From the NCBI RefSeq assembly GCF_000011805.1, contig NC_006840.2: a DNA stretch of 32,000 nt; one strand, written 5' to 3'. This DNA is from Aliivibrio fischeri ES114. GTDB taxonomy: Bacteria; Pseudomonadota; Gammaproteobacteria; Enterobacterales; Vibrionaceae. A model generated the notes under the pieces. It was not told the origin of the DNA and searched no databases. It was given only the letters and a program-made list of their open reading frames with translations. Shown piece by piece: positions 7,602 through 25,277 of the stretch. Made by a program: the position numbers and the translations under genes. Within the stretch, counting starts at the first letter, position 1. Every line of letters begins with the position of its first letter.

Positions 7602-8972
7602 ATGTCATTAGCCGTTATCATCAATTTAGCCGTATTTATCGGTCTTATCTTTTTTATTAATACACAGCAACGTAAAGAATACACATTATCAAGACTGGTT
7701 CTGATCGGACTTGTTGCTGGTAGCTTATATGGCTTAGGACTTCACCTAGTATACGGTGGAGGCAGCGACGTAATTAGCACAACACTTGATTGGGTCAATA
7801 TTGTAGGCAGTGGTTACGTTGGTCTACTTAAGATGGTAATAATGCCTCTAGTACTTGTATCTATGTTTGCTGCAGTGGTGAAACTTGATAAATCAGGCTC
7901 TTTAGGAAAAATCAGTGGTGTTACTATCAGCGTATTACTTGTTACGACCATGATTGCAGCTCTTATTGGTATCACTGTTACTCATACTTTCGGCTTAACA
8001 GCTGAGGGGCTAACTGAAGGTGCTCGTGAAACAGCCCGTGTTGCTGTACTTGAATCTCGTATTGGTAGCGTAAGTGATTTAAGTATTCCTCAAATGCTAG
8101 TTAGCTTTATCCCAACCAATCCATTTGCTGATTTAACAGGAACTCGCTCAACATCTATCATTGCAGTTGTTATTTTTGCCATTCTATCTGGTATTGCTGC
8201 TCGTAAAGTAAGCCAAGAAAAGGAAGAGTTAGCTGCTCCTATTAATACTTTTGTTGACGTTGCACAATCAATCGTGATGCGATTAGTTAAAATGATTATG
8301 GCTCTAACTCCTTACGGTATTTTAGCGCTATTAACTAAAGTGGTTGCCACATCGAATGCGGCCGACATTTTAAATCTACTTGGTTTCATCGTAGCTTCAT
8401 ATATCGCCATTTTATTAATGTTCGTTGTTCACGGTTTATTGGTATCACTGGTTGGTGTTAGCCCTATCGATTACTTTAAAAAGATTTGGCCTGTACTCAC
8501 ATTTGCATTCAGCTCTCGTAGCTCAGCAGCAACGATTCCACTAAATGTTGAAGCACAAATTACAAAATTACGAGTGCCACCAGCAATTGCCAATTTATCA
8601 GCAACCTTTGGTGCGACAATTGGACAAAATGGCTGTGCTGGTATCTACCCTGCAATGCTTGCTGTAATGGTTGCTCCAACAATGGGGATCCCAATTGATG
8701 GACACTTCATTTTATCTCTAGTTGCTATTATCACAGTAAGTTCATTTGGTATTGCTGGTGTTGGTGGCGGAGCAACATTCGCAGCGTTAATCGTATTACC
8801 TGCGATGGGCTTACCCGTAACTATCGCTGCACTGCTTATTTCTATCGAACCATTGATTGATATGGCTCGTACTGCACTAAATGTAAGCGGAGCAATGACA
8901 GCCGGTACGATTACAAGTCGCGTATTAGGACAGAAAAGTACTGATGAACAGGTAGAAAGCGCACAAGCTTAA
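7602..8972 (+). CDS. tcyP: L-cystine transporter, DAACS family (YdjN/TcyP)
   Basis: 456 aa, near-collinear with E. coli YdjN as recalled: [93 protein letters not shown] 7 nt upstream. Confidence 0.92.
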
Positions 8973-8989
8973 TAAAATATCTTGAAACT

Positions 8990-9022
8990 AAAAAGGAAGC
9001 CAGATTGGCTTCCTTTTTTATT
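8990..9022 (+). terminator. Rho-independent terminator of tcyP
   Basis: GGAAGCC (8995-9001), 5-nt loop, GGCTTCC (9007-9013), then TTTTTTATTT. Confidence 0.85.
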
Positions 9023-9197
9023 TGAGATTTTAATAACCAACTTTTTTATATTCACTCTTAAGATAACACTAATTACATTAGGAAAACTAATCTGAAAATA
9101 CAATTTTACTAGCTAGAAATTATTAAATTAATATCTATAATGCGCGCCATACAAAGACGAAATATCTCGTTTATTTATCAGATTAAAAGGTGGCGCT

Positions 9198-9963: not shown

Positions 9964-11481
9964 TCAGCCTCGAATGGTAACTTGATTACGCCCCATCGTT
10001 TTACTTTGATATAACGCTTGATCAGCAGCCTTCAACAACTCTTCAAGTGTTTCTCCTTGCCAAAGGACAGCACCAAGACTGATTGTTTGAGCAATTTCGA
10101 AATCATTAAACACCGTTGGGGATGTAGCGACGAGATCATGAATTTGTTCTGAAATTAACGTTAATTCATCAATATTGTTCAGTTTCAACACAATAGAGAA
10201 TTCATCTCCTCCAAGACGTGAAACGTGGACATTATTTCCTAATGTTTCAGACATTAGGTGCCCAATATGTCGCAATACTTCATCCCCTTCGGGATGGCCA
10301 TATGTATCGTTGATTTGTTTAAACTTATCGATATCAAAACACAATAAAGCAAACGGCTTTTCAGCTTCTATGTAACGAGTAATAACATCTCGTATAGCAC
10401 GTCTGTTTAATAATCCTGTAAGATCATCATGCATTGCCATGTAACGTAATTCTTTGGTTCTAATTTCGAGTAAATTTTCAATTCGTTGTTTATCTCGAGT
10501 AACAACTGAAGTGAGTGCCGCAATAAGCATTGAAATGGTTAAGATACCGAAAAACAACCAAATCAACGTAAGTCTTTGATATTCATTTAATTTATTATCA
10601 GACTTATATTCTATTTTCCAAAGGCGATTTTCGATTTTTACGCTAGTAGTGTAATCCACTCCTTTGAAATTATTCCACGTACTGCTTTGATACATAATAG
10701 GATCATCACCAGCATCAAATCCCGTATCAATAATGCGTACAACCAACTCTTCACCTAATGAGGTGGAATTAACTAAACGGTCAAAATAACTGGTAATTCT
10801 TACGACACCAACCATTACCCCTTTTAACGCTGTTTTATCTGAAGTAAATACAGGATGATAAACTAGCATGCCTGTTTTTTGTGCGCTTTGATCAAGGCTA
10901 TCTTGCAATAAACGAATTTTATCTGAAACACTCGGGCGGCCCGTAGTTAAAAACTCTTCAACTACGAGGTTAAAACGCTCTCTTGATGAATAAAATCCAA
11001 TTAAAGGCGTGTTCTTCTCATCTCTTGGATAAATATCGGTTGCGATATAAATAGGCTCATGATTTTTCATCACATAACCATAGGTTTTAGGTTGGTCTTT
11101 TGGAACCGTATATAATTTAGCTAAAGGGTAGTTTTTATGTATTTGTTGAAAATGTTCATCAATGTCTTTTTCTTCAACTTTCTCCATCCATTGAAGTGAA
11201 ATAAGACTATTAGAACGATGCAATAATGAATCCGCAAACAAAGGAAACTGAGACCAATCCTTTTTACTGCCAACTTGATAGAAGTTTGCCCCTGCACCTA
11301 TAAAATCAATATCTTTCTCTATTAACATTGAAAGCAGTGCTGACTGTCTATCTGCTTCTTTATAGAAATTCTTTTGATTATTATCCAAATCGGATAGATA
11401 AACGAACCTCATACTTAATAGACCTAGAGATAGAGCTAACAAAAAACTGGTCATTACATAAAAGTAATTACTCTTAAACAC
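9964..11481 (-). CDS. Membrane diguanylate cyclase: TM, periplasmic CHASE-like sensor, TM, GGDEF
   Basis: C-terminal GGDEF domain with an intact RLGGDEFSIV. No RxxD I-site 5 residues upstream. Two hydrophobic segments flank a ~270-aa periplasmic region. The track start at 11493 is TTG; the GTG at 11481 has GGAG 6 nt upstream; the ATG at 11454 is also possible. Confidence 0.85.
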   Translation of the reverse strand: MFKSNYFYVMTSFLLALSLGLLSMRFVYLSDLDNNQKNFYKEADRQSALLSMLIEKDIDFIGAGANFYQVGSKKDWSQFPLFADSLLHRSNSLISLQWMEKVEEKDIDEHFQQIHKNYPLAKLYTVPKDQPKTYGYVMKNHEPIYIATDIYPRDEKNTPLIGFYSSRERFNLVVEEFLTTGRPSVSDKIRLLQDSLDQSAQKTGMLVYHPVFTSDKTALKGVMVGVVRITSYFDRLVNSTSLGEELVVRIIDTGFDAGDDPIMYQSSTWNNFKGVDYTTSVKIENRLWKIEYKSDNKLNEYQRLTLIWLFFGILTISMLIAALTSVVTRDKQRIENLLEIRTKELRYMAMHDDLTGLLNRRAIRDVITRYIEAEKPFALLCFDIDKFKQINDTYGHPEGDEVLRHIGHLMSETLGNNVHVSRLGGDEFSIVLKLNNIDELTLISEQIHDLVATSPTVFNDFEIAQTISLGAVLWQGETLEELLKAADQALYQSKTMGRNQVTIRG

Positions 11482-11648
11482 TCTGCTCTCCAACGGTTGA
11501 TAACCCTTTAATTCTAATAAAATTTTGAAATTTTCGAAACCAAAAGCCTATATTTAATTTTTATTACTCAGATTTGATTCATTCTGTTCAAAATTACATC
11601 ATTCAGCATATATAAGTCGCTTTGATTGCCCTTCTTTTTATCTCTTAT

Positions 11649-11680
11649 CCCTTGAATATGCTACTATTAGCCACAATTTA
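11649..11680 (+). promoter_or_regulatory. Sigma-32 (heat-shock)-like promoter candidate for the DUF2760/Hsp70 operon
   Basis: CCCTTGAA (11649-11656), 14 nt, then CCACAATTTA (11671-11680). Compare the E. coli RpoH consensus CCCTTGAA-N13-15-CCCCATNTA: -35 exact, -10 has 2-3 mismatches. Lies 48 nt upstream of the ATG. Confidence 0.35.
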
Positions 11681-11727
11681 GTTAGAAACGTTTGGTGCTA
11701 AGCACCCTAGAATATAGAGAATGAATT

Positions 11728-12360
11728 ATGAATTTTGACTTGAATGCTATTCCTTCTACCTTTGATTTAGGACACATTGTCCTGTTCGGTACATCTGCTC
11801 TATTTGCATTATTGTACATAACGAAGAAAGGTAAAGCGGTAGAGATCGAAAAAACGGTTGAAGTCGAAAAAATCGTCGAAGTTGAGAAACCTGTAGAAAA
11901 AATCGTCGAAATCGAAAAAGTTGTTGAAGTTGAAAAGATCATTGAGAAAATCATCGAAGTTGAACCAAAAGTAAAAGCATCAACGCCTGAATCTGCTTTA
12001 CAACTATTAGCTTTATTACAAAAAGAAGCACGTTTTATTGACTTTATGCAAGAAGACCTAAAAGGCTTCGCAGATGCAGAAGTTGGCGCTGCAGCTCGTG
12101 TTATTCATGAAGGCGGTCAGAAAGTATTATCTGACTACTTTACTCTTACTCCAGTTCGTACAGAGGAAGAAGAGTCTCGTTTATCTATTCCTGCTGGTTT
12201 TAACCCATCGGAAATTCGTCTAACGGGTAATGTTGTTGGTGAAGCACCATTTAATGGCACATTAATTCACCGTGGTTGGAAAGTAGCAGAAGTGAAGCTA
12301 CCAAAGCTGGCTGAAGGTTATGACGCAACAATCGTTGCTCCAGCAGAGGTTGAACTGTAA
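11728..12360 (+). CDS. DUF2760 family protein: N-terminal TM anchor, VE[VI]EKx repeat linker, conserved C-terminal domain
   Basis: 210 aa. TM segment LGHIVLFGTSALFALLYIT. Repeat at residues 38-80. C-terminal ALQLLALLQKEARFIDF...TLIHRGWKV matches my memory of DUF2760 (PF10816). The stop overlaps the next ATG (TAATG). Confidence 0.85.
   Translation: MNFDLNAIPSTFDLGHIVLFGTSALFALLYITKKGKAVEIEKTVEVEKIVEVEKPVEKIVEIEKVVEVEKIIEKIIEVEPKVKASTPESALQLLALLQKEARFIDFMQEDLKGFADAEVGAAARVIHEGGQKVLSDYFTLTPVRTEEEESRLSIPAGFNPSEIRLTGNVVGEAPFNGTLIHRGWKVAEVKLPKLAEGYDATIVAPAEVEL
11839..11967 (+). repeat. In-frame 18-nt (occasionally 12-nt) tandem repeat encoding VEIEKT VEVEKI VEVEKP VEKI VEIEKV VEVEKI IEKI IEVEP
   Basis: Read directly: GTNGAARTNGARAAANNN units repeated about 8 times inside the DUF2760 gene. 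Confidence 0.9.
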
Positions 12361-14180
12361 TGGAACAAGCTAAATACAGCATTGGTATCGATTTAGGTAC
12401 AACTCACTGTGTACTTTCATACGTTGATTTACATGATGAAGACGCAAGCGTTCAAGTAATGCCAATCCCTCAACTCACCGCTCCAGGTCAAGTTGAAGAG
12501 AAATCGCAGCTGCCTTCTTTCATGTATCAAGCACATGAAGCTGAACTATTAGAAGGTGATACAAGCCTTCCTTGGACAACCAAGCCAAACGCAATTGTTG
12601 GTAGTATTGCCCGCAACCTTGGTAGTAAAACGCCAATTCGTTTGATTGCAAGTGCGAAAAGCTGGTTATGTCACGGTGGCGTAAACCGTCGTGAAGCATT
12701 CTTACCACTAAACAGCCCAGAAGAAGTGATCAAAGCATCGCCTCTTGAAGTAACAAAACGTTATTTAGAGCATTTACAAAACGCTTGGGATCACCAAAAT
12801 CCAGAGCACCCTCTAAATGAACAAGACATTACAATTACGGTACCTGCATCATTTGACCCTGCTGCTCGTGATTTAACAGCAGAAGCGGCAAATAATCTTG
12901 GTTTCCGTAACTTAACGCTTTTAGAAGAACCACAAGCAGCAGTATACAGCTGGATCAAAAATAACGATGATTCATGGCGTGACCAAGTATCGGTTGGTGA
13001 TGTTATTTTAGTTGTTGATATTGGTGGTGGTACAACGGATTTATCATTAGTTGCTGTTACTGAAGAAGAAGGTAATTTAAGCCTAAACCGTGTTGCGGTA
13101 GGCGACCATATTCTTCTTGGTGGTGACAACATGGATTTAGCCCTAGCTTATCGCTTAAAAATGAAGCTAGCGCAAGAAGGTAAGCAGTTACAACCTTGGC
13201 AAATTCAAGTGATGACACACGCTTGTCGTGATGCAAAAGAAGCACTATTAAATGACTCAGAATTACGAGCAGTACCGATTGTGGTTCCTAGCCGTGGTTC
13301 TAAATTGTTAGGTGGCACGCTACAAACGGAATTAACTCAAGAAGAAGTACAACAAACATTAGTTGAAGGCTTCTTCCCTGTAGTTCCTGTGACTGAGCAC
13401 CCAGTTCAATCTGCACGTGGTGCATTAACTCAAATGGGTCTTCCTTATGCACAAGATGCAGCGGTAACTCGTCACCTTGCTAGCTTCTTAACTCGTCAAC
13501 AAGCAGCAACTGATGAAGTATTTGGTCAGCAAAACGAATCTGATTTTATTAAACCAACAGCCATTCTTTTAAATGGTGGTGTTCTAAAATCAAACCTACT
13601 TGCAGAACGTCTACTTGGTATTATTAATCAGTGGTTAATCGATGGCGAAGCGGAAGATGCAAAACTTCTTGAAGGTCTTGACCTTGATTTAGCTGTTGCG
13701 GCTGGTGCTTCTTACTACGGCTCTGTTCGTACCGGTAAAGGTGTTCGTATCCGTGGTGGTATTGCATCAAGCTACTATGTTGGTATCGAAAGCTCTATGC
13801 CTGCGATTCCTGGAATGGAACCACCAATGGAAGCATTATGTGTTGCTCCATTTGGTATGGAAGAAGGCTCGCACGCCGATGTACCTAGCCAACAATTTGG
13901 TTTGGTGATTGGCCAACCGGTGCAATTTAAGTTCTATGGTTCAACGACTCGTCGTGATGACCAAGCCGGTACACATTTGGATTTCTGGATGCCTGAAGAG
14001 CTAGAAGAATTACCTACAATTCAAGTAACTCTACCTGTAACGGAAGGACGTACCGCAGGTGAAGTGGTTCCTGTTCGTTTAGCGTCTAAAGTAACAGAGC
14101 TTGGTACTCTATATCTTGAAGCGATTGCTGCAGATAGTGGTGAGAAATGGCACGTTGAGTTTGATGTTCGTGAAGCGTAA
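12360..14180 (+). CDS. Non-canonical Hsp70-family ATPase (606 aa): NBD plus beta-rich C-terminal domain, no helical lid
   Basis: IGIDLGTTHCV, ITVPASFD, LLEEPQAAVY, VVDIGGGTTDLSLV, GDHILLGGDNMDLALA, LLNGGVLKS, DLAVAAGASYYG. Ends KWHVEFDVREA. ATG overlaps the upstream TAA. Confidence 0.9.
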   Translation: MEQAKYSIGIDLGTTHCVLSYVDLHDEDASVQVMPIPQLTAPGQVEEKSQLPSFMYQAHEAELLEGDTSLPWTTKPNAIVGSIARNLGSKTPIRLIASAKSWLCHGGVNRREAFLPLNSPEEVIKASPLEVTKRYLEHLQNAWDHQNPEHPLNEQDITITVPASFDPAARDLTAEAANNLGFRNLTLLEEPQAAVYSWIKNNDDSWRDQVSVGDVILVVDIGGGTTDLSLVAVTEEEGNLSLNRVAVGDHILLGGDNMDLALAYRLKMKLAQEGKQLQPWQIQVMTHACRDAKEALLNDSELRAVPIVVPSRGSKLLGGTLQTELTQEEVQQTLVEGFFPVVPVTEHPVQSARGALTQMGLPYAQDAAVTRHLASFLTRQQAATDEVFGQQNESDFIKPTAILLNGGVLKSNLLAERLLGIINQWLIDGEAEDAKLLEGLDLDLAVAAGASYYGSVRTGKGVRIRGGIASSYYVGIESSMPAIPGMEPPMEALCVAPFGMEEGSHADVPSQQFGLVIGQPVQFKFYGSTTRRDDQAGTHLDFWMPEELEELPTIQVTLPVTEGRTAGEVVPVRLASKVTELGTLYLEAIAADSGEKWHVEFDVREA

Positions 14181-14213
14181 TTTGGATATTATTCTTCGCT
14201 AGTTACGTATCTT

Positions 14214-14252
14214 AAGAGTTCAGTCACCGTTATGGAGTCTGAACTCTTTTAC
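14214..14252 (+). terminator. Intergenic hairpin plus short T-run between the two Hsp70 paralogues (partial terminator/attenuator candidate)
   Basis: AAGAGTTCAG (14214-14223), 15-nt loop, CTGAACTCTT (14239-14248), then TTTACT. Confidence 0.45.
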
Positions 14253-14368
14253 TATATATCCTTTGTATTTTTGCTGTTGCCTTCTTATACCAATGTAACT
14301 AATTAGATGTTCATTATTAATATTGATATTACTAACAGCTACAAGACTAACATTACGTCGGGGTTTTT

Positions 14369-17185
14369 ATGAGTTCTTCTAATCGCTATTTAATTGGTAT
14401 CGATCTTGGTACTACTCACACCGTTGTTGCTTATACTGATATTTCTCTTGGTATTGAAACTAGCCCAATTGAAATCTTCAATATCGACCAATTAATTGGA
14501 CCGGGTGAAGTGGCTCGTAAACCCCTACTTCCATCATTTCGTTACCATGCATCACAAAGTCAAATCACTGAAAATGATCTGACACTGCCTTGGAATGTAA
14601 AAGCAATTGAAGGTGAGATAAAGAACGCCATTATTGGTGAGTGGGCTCGTGAATTAGGGTCAAAAGTAGAAGGTCGCCAAGTCGTAAGTGCTAAGAGTTG
14701 GTTATCTCATACTAAAGTTGATCGCACCTCCAATATTCTTCCTTGGGCTGGCGCTGATGATGTCGAAAAAGTCTCACCTATTGTTGCCAGTGCTAGTTAT
14801 TTAAACCATGTACGCCAATCGTGGAATTACCACCACCCAGATGCCCCAATGGAGCTTCAGGAAGTGGTTGTTACCGTACCGGCATCTTTTGATGAAAGTG
14901 CACGCTCATTTACGATTGAGGCTGCAAAACTGGCAGGCCTTGATAAAATCATCCTATTAGAAGAGCCACAAGCGGTGTGTTACGACTGGTATCATCATCA
15001 TCAAGATACGGCAAAAGAGATTTTAAAAACCATCCCACTAATGGTGGTATGCGATGTTGGCGGTGGTACAACCGATTTAAGCTTAATTCAAGCGCGTTTT
15101 AATAAAGACGAATTAGCACTTGATCGCATTGGCGTGGGCGATCACTTAATGCTAGGTGGCGATAACATTGATTTAGCGCTAGCACATTTAGCTGAACAGC
15201 GCTTAGATAGCGGTAAAAAAATGACGGCAGCCGCGTTAACCAAGCTTATTCAACAAACACGTAAAACAAAAGAGCGTTTGTTATCTGCTAATGCTCCCGA
15301 ATCAGGCCACATTACCCTACTTGGATCTGGTTCTAAATTATTAGGTGGCAGTCGTAAAGTCGAGTTGACCAAAGAAGAAGTTCATCAAATTGCACTGGAT
15401 GGATTCTTACCACTGACTGACTTTAATGACCGTCCAAATCAACGTCAAACTGCTGTTGTTGAATTTGGCTTACCTTACGCTTCAGATCCTGCTATCAGTA
15501 AACACTTAGCTCAGTTCTTAGATAATCATAAAGAAGTATCAGCAAAAGCATTAGGTTGGGATGATGCTGAATTGGCTAATCACGAGGACCGTGCAATACC
15601 TGTAGGTTTGCTGCTTAATGGCGGTGTTTTTAATAGCCCATTATTGGCTGAACGTTCTCTTCAACTACTTAACAACTGGAAAGGTGACACTGTCACTCAA
15701 CTATCAAACCCTCATCCAGATCTAGCGGTTGCTTATGGCGCAGTTGCTTATGGCAAGGCACGTCATGGTGCACAATTAAAGATCGGTGGAGGCTCCGCTC
15801 GTTCATTCTATTTACAGCTAGAAGAGAAAAACAAACAACCTCAAGGTCTGTGTTTATTGGCTAAAGGCAGTGAGGAAGGTGAAGAGATCCGCATGACGAG
15901 TCGTCGTTTCTCGTTAACCTTGGGAGAACCTGTTCGTTTTAATCTACTTTCTACAACAAAAGATCAACTTGCAACCTCGGGTATGATCACTGAATTAGCT
16001 GATTCTAGCTTTGTTAGCCTACCTCCTTATGTGGTAACACTAGAATCTAGTAAATCAAAAGATGAACTGCATGCAAACCAAAAAGATCGCGTTGAAGTAA
16101 CCTTAGCTTGCCAATTTACAGAAGTCGGCACCATTAAAATTGAATGTGTTTCTGTTGAGGACGATTCACAGCGTTGGTTGGTTGAATTTGAAGTACGTAA
16201 TCAGGCGTCTAATAAAAGCGCTAACCTTGCGGATCAAGTTAGCCTTCCCCCTCGCCTACCTAATGCTATAGCAAGCATTAAAGAGGCTTATGGTGGCAGC
16301 AAACAAAATCCAAATGCCATCAAAGCTTTTAATAAAAATATTGAAAAGCTAATTGGTAAGCGTGAATCATGGGATCTTATTACGTCTCGTGAACTTGCAA
16401 CAGCATTACTTGATAGTAAAAAACGTCGTCGTCGCTCTGACAAACACGAACAAAATTGGTTAAAAATGACGGGGTTCGCTTTACGCCCCGGTTTTGGCTA
16501 CCCTGCTGATGAATGGAAGATATCTCAAGCATGGGAAACCTATCAACAAGGTATTCAATTTGAATCGAAACAATCTTGGAACGATTGGTGGACATTCTGG
16601 CGTCGGATCTCTGGTGGTTTAAATCAAGAGCAACAAGAAACCATTTTAGCTGATATGGCGAAATACCTGCATCCTGGTTCTTTACGTAACCCAAAAACAT
16701 TAGAAGAAGCCAGTAACAAAAGTTATGAAGCTATGGTACGACTTGCCGCAGCACTCGAACATTTGGACGTAGAAGATAAAATGCTGATTGCATCTTGGGT
16801 ATTAGGTCATGCTAAAAATGGAAATCAACCGCAAGTACATTGGTGGGCATTAGGCCGAATTTGTTCACGTTCACCATTCTATGGAAGCCAGCATAATTTA
16901 GTTCCACCAAGCCAAATATCTCAATGGCTACCAACATTATTAGAGCAAGATTGGAAAGAACAGCCCATGGCTGGTTTTGCCGCAGTAATGATGGCTCGCT
17001 TAACCGGTGATAGAACCCTTGATGTTTCAGATGAATATCGAGAAAAAATCATCGAAAAATTGAAAAAAGATCGCTGCCCACAAAGCTGGATTGAATTAGT
17101 ATCAAGCCAACAAGCATTAACAGAAGCAGACTCTAAACGCTTATTTGGTGACGCATTACCCGCAGGCTTACGTTTAATTAATTAG
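14369..17185 (+). CDS. Non-canonical Hsp70-family ATPase, long form (938 aa): NBD, beta-rich domain, ~330-aa Trp-rich helical C-terminal extension
   Basis: IGIDLGTTHTV, VTVPASFD, LLEEPQAVCY, VCDVGGGTTDLSLI, GDHLMLGGDNIDLALA, LLLNGGVFNS, DLAVAYGAVAYG. The beta domain ends RWLVEFEVRN. Then KKRRRRSDKHEQNWLKMTGFALRPGFGYPADEW... to the end. Confidence 0.9.
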   Translation: MSSSNRYLIGIDLGTTHTVVAYTDISLGIETSPIEIFNIDQLIGPGEVARKPLLPSFRYHASQSQITENDLTLPWNVKAIEGEIKNAIIGEWARELGSKVEGRQVVSAKSWLSHTKVDRTSNILPWAGADDVEKVSPIVASASYLNHVRQSWNYHHPDAPMELQEVVVTVPASFDESARSFTIEAAKLAGLDKIILLEEPQAVCYDWYHHHQDTAKEILKTIPLMVVCDVGGGTTDLSLIQARFNKDELALDRIGVGDHLMLGGDNIDLALAHLAEQRLDSGKKMTAAALTKLIQQTRKTKERLLSANAPESGHITLLGSGSKLLGGSRKVELTKEEVHQIALDGFLPLTDFNDRPNQRQTAVVEFGLPYASDPAISKHLAQFLDNHKEVSAKALGWDDAELANHEDRAIPVGLLLNGGVFNSPLLAERSLQLLNNWKGDTVTQLSNPHPDLAVAYGAVAYGKARHGAQLKIGGGSARSFYLQLEEKNKQPQGLCLLAKGSEEGEEIRMTSRRFSLTLGEPVRFNLLSTTKDQLATSGMITELADSSFVSLPPYVVTLESSKSKDELHANQKDRVEVTLACQFTEVGTIKIECVSVEDDSQRWLVEFEVRNQASNKSANLADQVSLPPRLPNAIASIKEAYGGSKQNPNAIKAFNKNIEKLIGKRESWDLITSRELATALLDSKKRRRRSDKHEQNWLKMTGFALRPGFGYPADEWKISQAWETYQQGIQFESKQSWNDWWTFWRRISGGLNQEQQETILADMAKYLHPGSLRNPKTLEEASNKSYEAMVRLAAALEHLDVEDKMLIASWVLGHAKNGNQPQVHWWALGRICSRSPFYGSQHNLVPPSQISQWLPTLLEQDWKEQPMAGFAAVMMARLTGDRTLDVSDEYREKIIEKLKKDRCPQSWIELVSSQQALTEADSKRLFGDALPAGLRLIN

Positions 17186-17345: not shown

Positions 17346-17648
17346 ATGATTGAAAGCGCCACGTTGGCGATCATAGTGTTACTTTATTTTGTTGGTTGGT
17401 CCCGTTTCGGTACTCGAGAATTACGCAATGCAGCTAAGAGGATGAGTGATATCGCCTCTGTTCCACAAGAGCTGATTATTGAATGGATTATGTATAATAA
17501 ACAGATATTGGATATCAATGAGTTTCAACGTTTTATCATCCATTTAAATAAAGCCGACACCGAAAACTTAAAGCATGAACTAGATAGCTTTTCTCATTAT
17601 CTTGAAATTCACGCTCCCGAACACATAATTTCAATTAATCGGGTATGA
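17346..17648 (+). CDS. Hypothetical small protein with one N-terminal TM helix
   Basis: 100-aa ORF. AAAGGT 8 nt upstream of the ATG, hydrophobic ATLAIIVLLYFVGW, strong terminator directly downstream. No family recognised. Confidence 0.55.
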   Translation: MIESATLAIIVLLYFVGWSRFGTRELRNAAKRMSDIASVPQELIIEWIMYNKQILDINEFQRFIIHLNKADTENLKHELDSFSHYLEIHAPEHIISINRV

Positions 17649-17711: not shown

Positions 17712-18185
17712 CTAACTTCTTGTTCCTAATTTCACTTTACCTTTAGAGTTAAACCATAAGACTTGTGATTTCTTCTTACCAATTAATAATGGTAAATCAT
17801 CATAAAATAAGAAGTTCTTCCATGTTTTCTTAAACGTTCCCCATGAAGTTTCAATTAAGTTATATTTCTCATAACAAAAATAAACGGTTACTTCATCAGA
17901 CCAATCGATAAATTCCAACACTTCTTCAGGTAATGATTCATTATCGCTGTCCCAACGATGTTGCCAATCAATTTCATTTGTCCACGAACTTTTCTTCATT
18001 GGCCACTCTTTCGAGCCAAAATGATCCGCGGTTGGGCTATTGCTGCTGATAAAGTCATTCCAAACTTGAGCTGATTTTGCTTGAGTGAATGGTTTTATTA
18101 ATGGTAGCAAGGCATCATCAACCGGCATTGATTGATGAGTAAAAATCCACTTGCGATTGTATTCATCTAAAGGTAAATAGCTCAT
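17712..18185 (-). CDS. DUF2947 family protein (Trp-rich, function unknown)
   Basis: 157 aa. The N-terminus YLPLDEYNRKWIFTH and overall Trp-rich composition match my recollection of DUF2947 in Vibrionaceae. Confidence 0.7.
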   Translation of the reverse strand: MSYLPLDEYNRKWIFTHQSMPVDDALLPLIKPFTQAKSAQVWNDFISSNSPTADHFGSKEWPMKKSSWTNEIDWQHRWDSDNESLPEEVLEFIDWSDEVTVYFCYEKYNLIETSWGTFKKTWKNFLFYDDLPLLIGKKKSQVLWFNSKGKVKLGTRS

Positions 18186-18343: not shown

Positions 18344-18414
18344 GATTACACATGCCTTCTTGCTTCCATTTATGTGTAATCGCCATTACAAGGATTATTA
18401 AATGATTACGCATG
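18344..18414 (+). promoter_or_regulatory. Three copies of GATTACRCAT (direct, inverted, direct) spanning the leader and start codon of the CARF-nuclease gene
   Basis: A = GATTACACAT (18344-18353). B = ATGTGTAATC (18372-18381), the perfect complement of A. C = GATTACGCAT (18404-18413), overlapping the ATG at 18402-18404. The AAGGA SD lies between B and C. Confidence 0.4.
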
Positions 18415-19553
18415 TTGGCATTTTAGATCAAGACCCCGTACGTCTTATCACCCCCCTTTTAGACTTATCTGTTAAAGGGGAACACATGGTATTTATCGGC
18501 GATGAAACTCAAAAAGAGATGTTTCATCGACTCGAGTCAATTCTAAAATATAAAGGGATCAGTTCTGATTTTTTTGAAATCCCAAATATTGTTGATACCC
18601 ATGCAATCAAACAATCATTACAAGCACTTGCTGCTGAAATGAAACTTCACTTTAGTGATATCAAATTAAATGCGAGTTGTGGTCTTCGTCACCGTCTTCT
18701 TTCTGCCTATGAAGTGTTCCGTTCATATCATTGGCCAATCTTTGTTGTAGAGCCATACAGTGATAAATTATGCTGGTTATACCCAGATGGTCGCAAACAA
18801 AAACACGTTGCTGATAATATTCGCTTGAGTGATTATCTTGCTATTTTTGGGGCTCGTTGTGAGTTTTCAGAAACTGAATTACCAGAAAGTATCGATAAGC
18901 GCTTAAGAGAACTATGCCAACGCTGGGCAAGCAACGCATTAGAGTTAGGCCCGGGCTTAGCAACATTAAACTACTTAGCAACCACCTGTCGTAAAGAACA
19001 ACGTTTAGATGTTGAAGTAACAGAGAAACAACAGAGCTATAAAGAACTTAATATGCTACTAACTGACCTTGTAGAAACAGGGTTAGCTACCTATGAAAAC
19101 GGCATATTAACATTCGATTGTGAAGAAGCTCGTCGTTTAGCTAATGGGGAATGGCTTGAAATATTGGTTCACAATACCGTTGTCGATATTCAACAATATT
19201 TACCAACACTGCAAGACCACTCTTTAAATGTACAAGTGCATCGTGAGATTGGTGAAAAAGACGTTCGTAATGAACTTGATGTGGTTAGTATTGTAAATAA
19301 CAAACTGCATATCATTGAATGTAAAACAAAAGGTATGCGTGATGATGGTGATGATACACTTTACAAATTAGAATCATTACGTGACTTACTTGGTGGGCTT
19401 CAAGCTCGTGCAATGTTAGTCAGTTTCCGTCCTTTACGTAATAACGACATTATGCGCGCACAGGATTTAGGCTTAGCTATTATCGGCCCTGATGAATTAG
19501 GCGATCTTAAAAAACACCTTCTTAACTGGTTCTTAGCGGCCGGTGGTCATTAA
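18402..19553 (+). CDS. Stand-alone CARF, winged-helix and PD-(D/E)xK nuclease protein (DUF1887 / VC1899-like, Card1/Can2 architecture)
   Basis: 383 aa. N-terminal Rossmann-like domain with N90-A-S-C-G-L-R96 fitting the CARF signature [DN]x[ST]xxx[RK]. Mid-region LNMLLTDLVETGLATYENGILTF is wHTH-like. C-terminal GEWLE...ELD293VVSIVNNKLHIIE306CK308TKG gives the D...ExK nuclease motif. Confidence 0.8.
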   Translation: MITHVGILDQDPVRLITPLLDLSVKGEHMVFIGDETQKEMFHRLESILKYKGISSDFFEIPNIVDTHAIKQSLQALAAEMKLHFSDIKLNASCGLRHRLLSAYEVFRSYHWPIFVVEPYSDKLCWLYPDGRKQKHVADNIRLSDYLAIFGARCEFSETELPESIDKRLRELCQRWASNALELGPGLATLNYLATTCRKEQRLDVEVTEKQQSYKELNMLLTDLVETGLATYENGILTFDCEEARRLANGEWLEILVHNTVVDIQQYLPTLQDHSLNVQVHREIGEKDVRNELDVVSIVNNKLHIIECKTKGMRDDGDDTLYKLESLRDLLGGLQARAMLVSFRPLRNNDIMRAQDLGLAIIGPDELGDLKKHLLNWFLAAGGH

Positions 19554-23684: not shown

Positions 23685-25277
23685 TTATGCACTACCTAAC
23701 AAAACGTCGATCAATATTTTCTTATTTTGTTCAACAGAAGACATTACGTTTTCATACCCAGCAGTGTTATTTGTGCGCTCCATTCTATGAATAATAGCTA
23801 GACACTGTTTAATATTCTCTGGGTTTTTCATTAAATTCTTACCTTTCAGCGTTAAAGTAAGAAGCATATAGTTTAAATCTGATGAATACGGATACGTCTG
23901 TCCTATCTTGATCAACTGAAGTCTGTTTTCATCTGCAGATTTTTGAGCTCTAAGCCATTGGTACACTTTATTTAGTTTTTGAAAATGCACCATCGACTGT
24001 TGTAGTAACTGTGGCGAATTCTTTTTGAGGTTCGCTTGATCAAACACTTTATATAAAGCAACACACAACTTCACTTCGCCAGCCATAGCTAAAACACCAA
24101 ATGTAGCAACACGAAATTCATCTGAAGCCACTTTACGCTCAGATAAGAATCGATGATAACAAGTTGCTGCAATTGCTTTTGCTTTATAACGCTTACCTTG
24201 TTTAAACAATTGTCGCGCTATAAAGATATTAATATAACCTTGCAATTCATCACGCTTATCCATTGATACACGTTTTTTCAACGTTATAACTAATTGACCA
24301 AAAAAGCGTCGATATTTTTCTTTATTAAACTGATGATTCGATTTATATACCGTATCAGCAATATCCAAAATCATTTTGTTTAATGTTACTGGTGTAATAC
24401 CAATATGATAAAAACGTTTCATTATCATATTATGAATAAGAGAATGCTCATTATTCTCAATAATAAATGTTAAATACGAATAAAAAGCACTATCACTTTT
24501 TGGATTATTCTCAAACGCTTTTGATAACGACGCTTGCTGCTTACTTTTTTGTTTTGCTTCTTCATATATTTCCGCCAACATTAAATTAGCTTTAAATAAA
24601 TACTTCTTAGAACGCAATAACAACTCAAGAACAGGTATTGCTTTTGGCTTTTCAACCATTTGGCAATACGCCATTAAGTTTTGTGGCATGATTTCGCTTT
24701 TATCATGACGTTGATAAACCTTTTTGAACGTCATAAAGTCTTTTGCTTTATACAGTTCTTCCAACGTCATGTTTAACAGCATTCTATTTTTATATGTGCC
24801 AGTAAACGTTTGTGCTCGCTTGATAAAAGCAGCTTGTGACCCTTTTACTTCCGCAATGAGTTTTTCGATCAATAATGTTAAGTTAAATGACTTTTTAATT
24901 AATTCATCAATATATCCATAATTGATAGGACTATTAACAATAAAATCAGGAAATAACTCCCTAGCATTTAAATCATCAACTTGAGAATCTTCATTTTCAA
25001 TATCAACAATAAAAATAGGTCGCTTACCAAACTTAGCATTCGCTCGTGCGTTATCTACAATTTCAGCAATTACTTCATGCGAAGAGTAATGATATTCAAT
25101 AAAATAATAATCATAGACAGGTAGATCTGATGCTTTCATGCCAAGATTAAAATTATCCGCGCTTTTAAAACCCGCTTTTTGAAAAAATTGACGAATTTGA
25201 GTACTGCGTTCACGTTTTTCAGTAAACACTAAAACATTCATTTGCGGAATACGTCTAATTAATTCGGCACTGCTCAT
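23685..25277 (-). CDS. Hypothetical 530-aa protein: degenerate receiver-like N-terminal domain plus long helical-repeat (TPR-like) region
   Basis: Long uninterrupted ORF. Residues ~13-125 follow a beta-alpha alternation like CheY (NVLVFTEK / YDYYFIEYH / PIFIVDIE / DFIVNSPI) but lack the DD-D-T-K set. The rest is helix-rich with K/L/Y repeats. No family recognised. Confidence 0.65.
   Translation of the reverse strand: MSSAELIRRIPQMNVLVFTEKRERSTQIRQFFQKAGFKSADNFNLGMKASDLPVYDYYFIEYHYSSHEVIAEIVDNARANAKFGKRPIFIVDIENEDSQVDDLNARELFPDFIVNSPINYGYIDELIKKSFNLTLLIEKLIAEVKGSQAAFIKRAQTFTGTYKNRMLLNMTLEELYKAKDFMTFKKVYQRHDKSEIMPQNLMAYCQMVEKPKAIPVLELLLRSKKYLFKANLMLAEIYEEAKQKSKQQASLSKAFENNPKSDSAFYSYLTFIIENNEHSLIHNMIMKRFYHIGITPVTLNKMILDIADTVYKSNHQFNKEKYRRFFGQLVITLKKRVSMDKRDELQGYINIFIARQLFKQGKRYKAKAIAATCYHRFLSERKVASDEFRVATFGVLAMAGEVKLCVALYKVFDQANLKKNSPQLLQQSMVHFQKLNKVYQWLRAQKSADENRLQLIKIGQTYPYSSDLNYMLLTLTLKGKNLMKNPENIKQCLAIIHRMERTNNTAGYENVMSSVEQNKKILIDVLLGSA

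Follow-up and report, generated by a model that had tools for sequence, protein, structure and literature searches.

By the usual rule, Hsp70 chaperones need J-domain proteins and, in bacteria, also GrpE; HscC, for instance, has its own membrane-anchored J-protein. Here, a three-gene locus of Aliivibrio fischeri ES114 (NCBI RefSeq assembly GCF_000011805.1, contig NC_006840.2) is described, which encodes a putatively membrane-anchored DUF2760 protein (g1) and two atypical Hsp70 proteins (g2 and g3). It lies in a window of 32,000 nucleotides (nt), the term being used throughout for the whole stretch of DNA that was analyzed. Several described systems stand close to it. HscA of the HscA-HscB-IscU system is a non-heat-shock Hsp70 that is encoded beside a partner protein and recognizes a short invariant client peptide. 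Two diverged Hsp70 paralogues are kept together in the Hsp70-Hsp110 (Sse1/Grp170) and Ssb-Ssz1 (RAC) pairs, one partner of which carries a large C-terminal extension. Small membrane-associated proteins hold Hsp70 at the membrane in the Tim44-mtHsp70 and Sec63-BiP systems, and Escherichia coli possesses atypical, non-housekeeping Hsp70s with a short or missing lid, namely HscC (YbeW), which works with DjlC, and YegD. The Stk locus of Myxococcus xanthus is a three-gene cluster with an Hsp70-like gene, and its role is regulatory and unrelated to heat shock (PMC4319316). It was already pointed out in a 2026 review that bacterial DnaK derivatives are unexplored (PMC13580251).

The locus is a real, strongly conserved and functionally uncharacterized Hsp70 variant assembled from catalogued protein families, and not a new kind of system. 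The original prediction, which had been made from the DNA letters, rated it the best candidate for a novel system in the window; this was overstated, since the families are catalogued in Pfam and thousands of genomes have the genes annotated as "DUF2760 domain-containing protein," "Hsp70 family protein" and "DnaK-related protein." The accompanying statement that no function has been described agrees with the literature search, in which no paper mentioning DUF2760, DUF3731, PF10816, PF12531 or VF_1512-1518 was found. Based on the evidence summarized below, we lean, by a modest degree of confidence, toward reading the locus as a self-contained, specialized Hsp70 machine on the cytoplasmic side of the inner membrane.

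Organization of the Locus

Three open reading frames (ORFs) were found in the ORF list of the window at exactly the positions and on the strand that had been predicted (Table 1). The g1 product is 99% identical to an A. fischeri protein annotated as "DUF2760 domain-containing protein." The predicted TAATG overlap of the g1 stop and the g2 start is present in the sequence, and a GAGG lies 10 nt 5' of the g2 ATG, within the codons of the conserved g1 tail. The motifs quoted for the Hsp70 proteins can likewise be read in the translations, i.e., IGIDLGTTH, TVPASFD, LLEEPQA, D[IV]GGGTTDLSL, GDHxxLGGDNxDLALA, LLNGGV and DLAVAxGA, together with KWHVEFDVR/RWLVEFEVR and KKRRRRSDK (g3 residue 684). The description of the locus as an operon is proven for g1-g2 only; in Aliivibrio, a spacer with a conserved hairpin intervenes between g2 and g3. 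The G+C content of g1-g3 is 0.41-0.43 vs. mostly 0.31-0.39 in the surroundings (12001-17000 vs. flanks); flank exceptions of 0.40-0.41 occur at 8-9 kb and 20-23 kb. The GC skew is slightly positive across 12001-17000 and negative in the flanks.

Table 1. Features of the three-gene locus and its surroundings (window positions), with J-protein genes found near related loci (positions in those loci).
Feature	Position	Strand	Description
g1	11728-12360	+	210 aa; N-terminal anchor, VEKxVE-repeat linker, C-terminal DUF2760
g1 anchor	11767-11823	+	residues 14-32, LGHIVLFGTSALFALLYIT; hydrophobic, transmembrane-like
g1 spacer	11836-11985	+	residues 37-86; low-complexity acidic/basic VE[VI]EK repeat
DUF2760 domain (PF10816)	11986-12354	+	g1 residues 87-209
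g1 tail	12337-12357	+	APAEVEL-COOH; near-invariant, candidate docking peptide
g1 stop/g2 start overlap	12358-12362	+	TAATG; one base common
g2	12360-14180	+	606-aa atypical Hsp70; nucleotide-binding domain ~1-460, short beta domain ~463-606
g2-g3 spacer	14181-14368		188 nt in Aliivibrio; + strand
Spacer hairpin	14214-14248	+	AAGAGTTCAG-N15-CTGAACTCTT; 10-bp stem, then TTTAC; z = -2.3
g3	14369-17185	+	938-aa atypical Hsp70; nucleotide-binding domain, SBD-beta-like domain, DUF3731 helical domain
g3 beta sandwich	15803-16183	+	residues ~479-605; substrate-binding-domain-like by fold
g3 all-helical domain	16217-17176	+	residues ~617-936; AF2 model, Pfam
g3 polybasic segment	16418-16444	+	residues 684-692, KKRRRRSDK
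Intergenic region	11494-11727		common to g1 and divergent VF_1515; presumed g1 promoter
VF_1515	9964-11493	-	CHASE-GGDEF diguanylate cyclase; divergent neighbor
100-aa ORF	17346-17648	+	no family match; conserved only in Aliivibrio
DUF2947 protein gene	17712-18185	-	downstream of g3
CARF nuclease gene	18402-19553	+	Card1-like CARF plus PD-(D/E)xK nuclease; Pfam Card1_endonuc E 1e-65; PADLOC Csx1 E 3e-145
530-aa ORF	23685-25277	-	no Pfam match at E <= 1e-5
PF12339 J-protein gene	L044 2844-3455		Competibacteraceae; 0.65 kb upstream of g1
PF12339 J-protein gene	L058 ~8485-9114		Competibacteraceae; 0.65 kb upstream of g1
PF12339 J-protein gene	L007 170-796		Photobacterium; 5.8 kb upstream of g1

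Conservation and Distribution of the Three-Gene Unit

One genome per species was scanned with a DUF2760 profile made from 9 domain-only sequences. At least 569 DUF2760 relatives were confirmed among the 600 matches listed, and the best 80 loci were kept for a census of neighboring genes. These loci belong to Gammaproteobacteria (Vibrionaceae, Psychromonas, Motiliproteus, Hahella, Methylococcales, Competibacteraceae and Ectothiorhodospiraceae), Betaproteobacteria (Massilia, Duganella, Thauera, Paraburkholderia and Herbaspirillum) and Myxococcota. Co-conservation of the three families as neighbors had been named beforehand as the test that could refute the unit, and it was found in all three of these phylum-level groups. 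A g2-type gene on the same strand follows g1 in 80/80 loci, and the stop-start overlap of the two genes is 1 nt in 34 loci and 4 nt in 42, i.e., 76/80 together. The next gene after g2 is a DUF3731-bearing g3-type gene in 66 of the 68 loci having at least 3 kb beyond g2. Outside Vibrionaceae, g3 mostly abuts or overlaps g2, whereas a spacer of ~50-220 nt is present within Vibrionaceae.

Clustering of all flanking ORFs of the 80 loci revealed no other gene conserved around the module across lineages. The conserved unit is exactly g1, g2 and g3, and the three-gene set occurs in several hundred bacterial species or more. The g2-type and g3-type proteins stay separate in every lineage, each scoring best with its own type, and the g2/g3 duplication is older than the spread of the module. 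Four loci of Methylococcales (L048, L054, L062 and L074) show a variant in which g2 has a 40-80-residue acidic, low-complexity N-terminal extension; g3 is not adjacent in L054 and L062, the two of them with sufficient downstream sequence and the two exceptions of the census. In these variant loci, a conserved 125-130-aa signal-peptide protein (…EWDG…TI.KIQ…Y.YK.C…) is encoded directly 5' of g1.

The ATPase Domains of g2 and g3

The two Hsp70 proteins are collinear over the whole length of g2, with 38% identity over 619 columns (E 3e-136), which bears out the view that they are clear paralogues. Both match the Pfam HSP70 family (PF00012) above its cut-off (E 4e-16 for g2, 1.5e-16 for g3), the matches covering only the nucleotide-binding domain (NBD), and all their matches among the sequences of the Protein Data Bank (PDB) are Hsp70 NBDs. 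The best NCBIfam matches are HscA and DnaK models at about one tenth of their cut-offs, with the YegD model (PRK11678) among the weaker ones. The strongest, HscA (TIGR01991/PRK05183; E ~1e-24), gives 86.7 and 86.1 bits vs. a cut-off of 708.55, so that neither protein is classified as HscA. NCBIfam holds no specific model for g1, g2 or g3.

For residue-level comparison, 76 g2-type and 60 g3-type sequences were aligned with E. coli DnaK, whose sequence was checked against PDB chains; the MAFFT alignment to DnaK was unreliable beyond the NBD, and the columns of the peptide cleft were not used. No aligned member of either type departs from the catalytic residues D8, K70, E171, D194, T199 and D201 (DnaK numbering), and on the strength of this invariance g2 and g3 are predicted to be competent for ATP hydrolysis. 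The VLLLD interdomain linker falls into gap columns in all 136 homologues; in its place, NBD and beta domain are connected by a conserved [RK]-I-G-G-G-S-A-R segment. Residues that contact the J-domain are altered as well: R167 is replaced by T in g2 and varies in g3, N170 is replaced by E, and T173 by Q.

Domains Following the NBD

Residues 470-938 of g3 were modeled by AlphaFold2 (AF2) from 105 homologues of 37-93% identity, which gave a predicted local distance difference test score (pLDDT) of 87. The model consists of a beta sandwich at model residues 10-136 and ~19 helices at 148-457. The top 50 Foldseek matches in the PDB are all Hsp70-family chains with a substrate-binding domain (SBD), including DnaK, HscA, BiP, human HSP70 and mortalin (best E 1.4e-4, probability 0.98-1.00). 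Judged by the fold of this model, the beta domain of g3 is an Hsp70 SBD-beta, and g2 is collinear with g3 throughout it.

The original prediction held that neither protein has a DnaK-type helical lid. This applies to g2, which ends in KWHVEFDVREA, 2 residues after the last beta strand. The helices of g3, however, begin where a lid would, and the first of them may act as one; they are included in Foldseek alignments of ~260 columns, with root-mean-square deviations of at least 17 Å. Most of this helical region is a known family. Residues 690-936 match Pfam PF12531 (DUF3731, "DNA-K related protein") with E 1e-101 and 340.2 bits vs. a gathering threshold of 25, over profile positions 1-248 of 248, and all full-length g3 homologues combine PF12531 with PF00012. 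The region had been described as an unclassified Trp-rich extension; the Trp enrichment is genuine, with 14 Trp in 328 residues (4.3% vs. 1.5% in the remaining protein), but the region is classified, as DUF3731.

Many Arg, Trp, His and Asp residues of the DUF3731 helical domain are invariant, and they cluster in motifs such as RRRRS-x2-HE-x2-W, RPGFG-x-P-x-D-x-WR, WW-x2-WRR-x2-GGL and D-R-x2-D. The R-R-S of the polybasic segment KKRRRRSDK and the H-E that follows are invariant or nearly so across phyla. This pattern of residues suggests a specific binding or catalytic site, and not a passive lid. Searches of the combined beta and DUF3731 region against PDB sequences gave no significant match, and the isolated domains gave nothing further against Pfam at E up to 10.

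The DUF2760 Protein g1

The membrane anchor proposed for g1 is borne out by a hydrophobic N-terminal segment, LGHIVLFGTSALFALLYIT, with a 19-residue Kyte-Doolittle mean of 1.78, acidic residues on its N-side and KKGK on its C-side. Transmembrane-like segments with the same bias, negative before and positive after, were found in 79 of 147 representatives of the g1 family; most of the others possess a shorter aromatic amphipathic segment, FFxRLxLAFxxFF. From this charge asymmetry, an N-out/C-in orientation is predicted, which would place DUF2760 in the cytoplasm beside the ATPases. In place of the repeat spacer that follows, other lineages have an Ala/Pro-rich one; over the family, spacers are Ala/Pro/Glu-rich and have a median of 45 residues.

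The conserved C-terminal domain was correctly assigned in advance to DUF2760: the Pfam match has E 4e-55 and 185.3 bits vs. a gathering threshold of 25, and covers profile positions 2-124 of 124. The family comprises 1806 clusters at 50% identity (E <= 1e-3), and the domain is nearly always found at the extreme C-terminus of proteins of 170-270 aa. A search of DUF2760 against PDB sequences gave no significant match, and its Foldseek search was set aside as uninformative about the fold, the AF2 model having a pLDDT of 59.

Conservation in the family is highest at the end of the protein, usually (I/V)(L/I/V)APAEVEL-COOH. E[VI]E[LIVM] ends the homologues within 2 residues of the C-terminus in 135 of 150 representatives, and the tail has a pLDDT below 50 in the AF2 model. 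Such a conserved, probably unstructured free tail, on a protein translated together with an Hsp70 that has no lid, resembles a docking or recognition peptide; the LPPVK of the HscA-IscU pair and the EEVD of Hsp70 that is bound by tetratricopeptide repeat (TPR) domains may be compared with it.

Search for Linked Co-chaperones

In the canonical systems DnaK-DnaJ-GrpE, HscA-HscB and HscC-DjlC, a dedicated J-protein and/or GrpE is encoded together with the Hsp70 or strictly co-occurs with it. The module differs from them in this regard, in terms of linkage only, as had been anticipated. No ORF of the window matched the J-domains of E. coli DnaJ, HscB and CbpA or the C-terminal part of GrpE in phmmer searches with unvalidated query sequences. 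With the same queries, J-domain ORFs were found within 10 kb of the module in only 3 of the 80 loci (L007, L044 and L058). All three encode proteins with PF12339 ("DNA-J related") plus PF00226 (DnaJ), and in the two Competibacter loci a response-regulator gene on the opposite strand separates the J-protein gene from g1. A connection between the two families might be read into their Pfam names, "DNA-J related" and "DNA-K related." The reverse census shows none: g1, g2 and g3 were found near PF12339 J-proteins in 0 of 80 metagenome loci, ~15 of which had 10-kb flanks. PF12339 was therefore rejected as a linked, dedicated J-partner, with 3/80 loci in the forward and 0/80 in the reverse census.

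A known J-like or NEF (nucleotide-exchange factor) domain in DUF2760 or DUF3731 had also been named as an outcome that would argue against the prediction. Neither domain matched J, GrpE, BAG or other co-chaperone domains by sequence or fold, and the fold search of DUF2760 carries no weight here owing to its poor model.

Regulation and Probable Orthologues

The best sigma-70-like match in the presumed g1 promoter region is TTGAAA-18-TATATT at 11525-11554 (+), a consensus match only, in a count not above that of shuffled sequences. The divergent neighbor was identified as VF_1515 by the published primer 1515_R, which matches exactly at 9964-9985; its annotated start, MRFVYLSD, falls inside a longer ORF that begins with TTG, and its counterpart in V. 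cholerae is VC1376. The alternative that this neighbor is VF_1200, with its LitR regulation, was rejected, as the VF_1200 primers are absent from the window. The stems of the g2-g3 hairpin are invariant in four Aliivibrio species, while both sequence and length differ in the 3' half of the spacer. The spacer is specific to Vibrionaceae, most other lineages having none. Partial termination is one conceivable role of the hairpin, and a function in processing or stability another; in this way it could set the g2:g3 ratio.

VC1375-VC1373 are very likely the V. cholerae orthologues of the module, based on annotation and gene order: VC1373 and VC1374 are annotated as "DnaK-related proteins," and VC1373-1375 lie next to VC1376, in the gene order of the V. 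metoecus locus L078. Binding of HapR between the two divergent genes (VC1375<>VC1376), with activation of the VC1375 promoter, was reported both in vivo and in vitro (PMC10328515), and the VC1375-VC1373 operon was listed among the genes repressed in biofilms (PMC9201469). Small changes of the operon were seen in two transcriptome studies. Just 5' of g3, at ~14322-14331, ATATTGATAT equals the left half of the HapR site atattgatatatcacacatctt in the VC1375 promoter; a LitR half-site is one possibility, a chance match in AT-rich DNA another. MXAN_5323 of M. xanthus (925 aa, cd10170 Hsp70) is probably the g3 orthologue, as judged by its length and by the occurrence of the module in Myxococcota. 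The gene is dispensable; mutants without it sporulate less and survive H2O2 less well, and it fails to replace E. coli dnaK (PMC8265645).

Proposed Function and Alternative Explanations

The favored reading, a specialized Hsp70 machine at the inner membrane, can be phrased as a working mechanism. g1 would act as a membrane tether or adaptor that holds the Hsp70 pair at the inner membrane or, alternatively, would be a dedicated client, as IscU is for HscA. The site that recognizes its C-terminal peptide might be DUF3731 or the open beta domain of g2. A heterodimer of g2 and g3 could form, one member governing how its partner exchanges nucleotide or releases substrate, like Hsp110-Hsp70 or Ssz1-Ssb, and DUF3731 would supply a specific surface for substrate or ligand. 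The cycle of g2 and g3 would then run without the canonical J/linker mechanism. The likely role is membrane-proximal remodeling or quality control of clients in stationary-phase or high-density physiology, and not bulk folding.

Several points weigh against this picture. The SBD-beta assignment comes from one AF2 model and Foldseek, with low TM-scores for a two-domain query, and is invisible to sequence profiles (Pfam to E 10; hhalign vs. the DnaK SBD). About half of the g1 family shows no clear transmembrane helix and has a short amphipathic N-terminal segment instead, and the AF2 model of DUF2760 is poor, so that its fold, and with it any adaptor or enzyme role, is tentative. A J-protein or NEF encoded elsewhere, or housekeeping DnaJ/GrpE, may serve g2 and g3. 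The heterodimer, the docking of the tail and the NEF-like role are analogies. In two Methylococcales loci (L054 and L062) g3 is not adjacent, so that g3 need not be co-expressed, and in Aliivibrio the conserved hairpin stands between g2 and g3. The orthology of VC1373-75 and MXAN_5323 is drawn from annotation, gene order or length.

Tentatively, and at clearly lower odds than the favored reading, the module may represent a new class of Hsp70 machine that is free of J-proteins and GrpE: g1 would recruit or activate Hsp70 through its peptide, the second Hsp70 would perform the exchange, and DUF3731 would bind a ligand or substrate or even catalyze a reaction.

It is unlikely, in our judgment, that g2 and g3 are auxiliary co-chaperones of housekeeping DnaK, NEF-like or boosting disaggregation, which g1 merely localizes. 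Hsp110-like co-chaperone roles were proposed for DnaK derivatives that contain the NBD, and genomes with such derivatives always retain canonical DnaK (PMC13580251). A complete NBD that has lost the J-contact residues and the linker, as in Hsp110s, would suit such a role, as would the mild stress phenotypes, and no others, of the putative M. xanthus orthologue. However, the maintenance of two distinct paralogues together, tightly coupled with g1 in three phyla, exceeds what an NEF needs; all catalytic residues of g2 and g3 are invariant, the many invariant polar residues of DUF3731 suggest a specific ligand, and no linkage with dnaK, dnaJ or grpE was found in the 80 loci.

Similarly improbable is a regulatory Hsp70 device that would hold or release a signaling protein at the membrane and, in Vibrionaceae, feed into quorum sensing, cyclic di-GMP (c-di-GMP) signaling, biofilm formation or motility. 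The module is divergent from a CHASE-GGDEF gene in 20 loci, but 18 of these are in Vibrionaceae, and the module is conserved far more widely than this neighbor. HapR activation at VC1375<>VC1376 (PMC10328515) and the repression of VC1373-1375 in biofilms (PMC9201469) fit the idea, whereas the V. fischeri supplement of LitR chromatin immunoprecipitation sequencing (ChIP-seq) lists no peak at VF_1513-VF_1517. A role of this kind was proposed for StkA in Myxococcus and for Ssz1 in yeast, and non-chaperone Hsp70 regulators have a precedent, although the Stk locus differs in composition (PMC4319316).

The option of a conflict module, raised in the original prediction, is disfavored, and an anti-phage system in which the NTPase pair and the membrane protein serve as sensor and effector has very little probability. 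In its favor, the module is compact, with three genes, and patchy across distant phyla, and the g1 anchor could in principle act as an effector. The module carries no effector domain such as a nuclease, protease, TIR or pore domain. In PADLOC-DB 2.0, g1 has no match and g2 and g3 match only the candidate PDC-M61B, weakly (E ~2e-6) and over ~100 residues of the shared actin-like fold. A Card1-like CARF nuclease gene lies two genes downstream in Aliivibrio, but adjoins the module in loci of this genus only. The genomic context is that of a core genome. The rest of the window is housekeeping (transporters, TPMT, 5'-nucleotidase, udp, P-type ATPase and asparaginase) and contains no mobile-element genes, and within Vibrionaceae synteny holds for the left flank (RNase T-like exonuclease, CHASE-GGDEF). 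A search of 2.9 million viral contigs turned up no DUF2760, and the PHROG matches of the module are generic Hsp70/ParM-like families only.

Least probable of all are actin-like filament or scaffold proteins of the MreB/ParM type anchored by g1, a notion to which g2 lends a Pfam MreB_Mbl match (PF06723; 28.6 bits vs. a 27-bit cut-off), NCBIfam adds weak MreB and BeeR matches, and the g1 tether adds a reminiscence of the membrane-targeting helices of MreB and FtsA, but against which stand the short span of the g2 match (profile 71-186 of 327, with an HSP70 match twice as strong), a g3 score of 20.1 bits, below the cut-off, PDB sequence matches that are all Hsp70 NBDs, the succession of the NBD by a domain of Hsp70 substrate-binding fold, and the invariant Hsp70-specific catalytic set including K70.

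The module tests a rule of Hsp70 biology, as two catalytically intact paralogues and a membrane-anchored partner occur with no linked J-protein or NEF, and it offers a genetically tractable case for asking whether the Hsp70 cycle can run without the usual J/NEF drive. V. fischeri and V. cholerae (probably VC1373-1375) come with genetics, host-colonization models and quorum-sensing tools. If the module is indeed a new class of machine free of J-proteins and GrpE, it would perform a membrane-proximal task assigned to no chaperone so far, and would do so in at least several hundred species of proteobacteria and myxobacteria, these two among them. Solving the module would assign a function to two Pfam DUFs, DUF2760 alone comprising ~1800 clusters at 50% identity.

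Other Genes in the Window

In eight loci of Vibrionaceae, from Aliivibrio and several Vibrio, but not beyond, the DUF2947 gene recurs on the downstream side of the module. The CARF nuclease gene looks like an orphan effector of the cyclic-oligoadenylate type, and no cas gene was detected among the window ORFs of at least 140 aa scanned against Pfam. In the PADLOC description of PDLC01131, which matches more weakly, PDB 1XMX is cited for the family of CARF-fused PD-(D/E)xK proteins.

Comparison With Known Systems

HscA-HscB-IscU shares with the module the layout of a non-heat-shock Hsp70 beside its partner. HscA is the best NCBIfam match for both g2 and g3, its SBD (1u00) is among the fold matches, and its recognition of the invariant client peptide LPPVK provides a model for the APAEVEL tail of g1. 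The differences are considerable: the score is 86 vs. 708 bits, there is neither an HscB-type J-protein nor Fe-S genes (no isc genes were found in the window), two Hsp70 paralogues are present instead of one, VLLLD is missing, g2 is lidless, and the partner is membrane-anchored. HscC and YegD are likewise atypical bacterial Hsp70s, with a shortened or missing lid and non-housekeeping roles; YegD, however, is an NBD only, and neither protein is paired with a paralogue, DUF2760 or DUF3731.

Tim44 and Sec63 resemble the proposed role of g1 as a small membrane-associated protein that holds Hsp70 at the membrane. These systems use a J-domain (Pam18, Sec63), whereas the module has no linked one; similarity of DUF2760 to Tim44 or Sec63 was not detected, and translocon genes are not linked. 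The Stk locus of M. xanthus was considered as the same system and rejected, for it encodes StkA of 540 aa, the SCP2-like StkB of 141 aa and StkC of 89 aa (PMC4319316), and lacks DUF2760, a second Hsp70 and DUF3731.

The Hsp70-Hsp110 and Ssb-Ssz1 pairs are like the module in keeping two diverged paralogues together and, as with g3, in the large C-terminal extension of one partner. Hsp110/Ssz1-type partners have also, like g2 and g3, lost the canonical linker and J responsiveness (PMC13580251). An Hsp110-type exchange factor is defined by an NBD-NBD heterodimer with a partner Hsp70 whose nucleotide release it speeds up; of its traits, g2 and g3 share only the missing linker and J contacts. It is from these eukaryotic pairs that the idea of one module Hsp70 regulating the other was taken, and the likeness is an analogy only: the module is bacterial and of independent origin, both of its members are catalytically complete, its extension is DUF3731 instead of an extended lid of the Hsp110 type, and a third, membrane-anchored component is obligatory.

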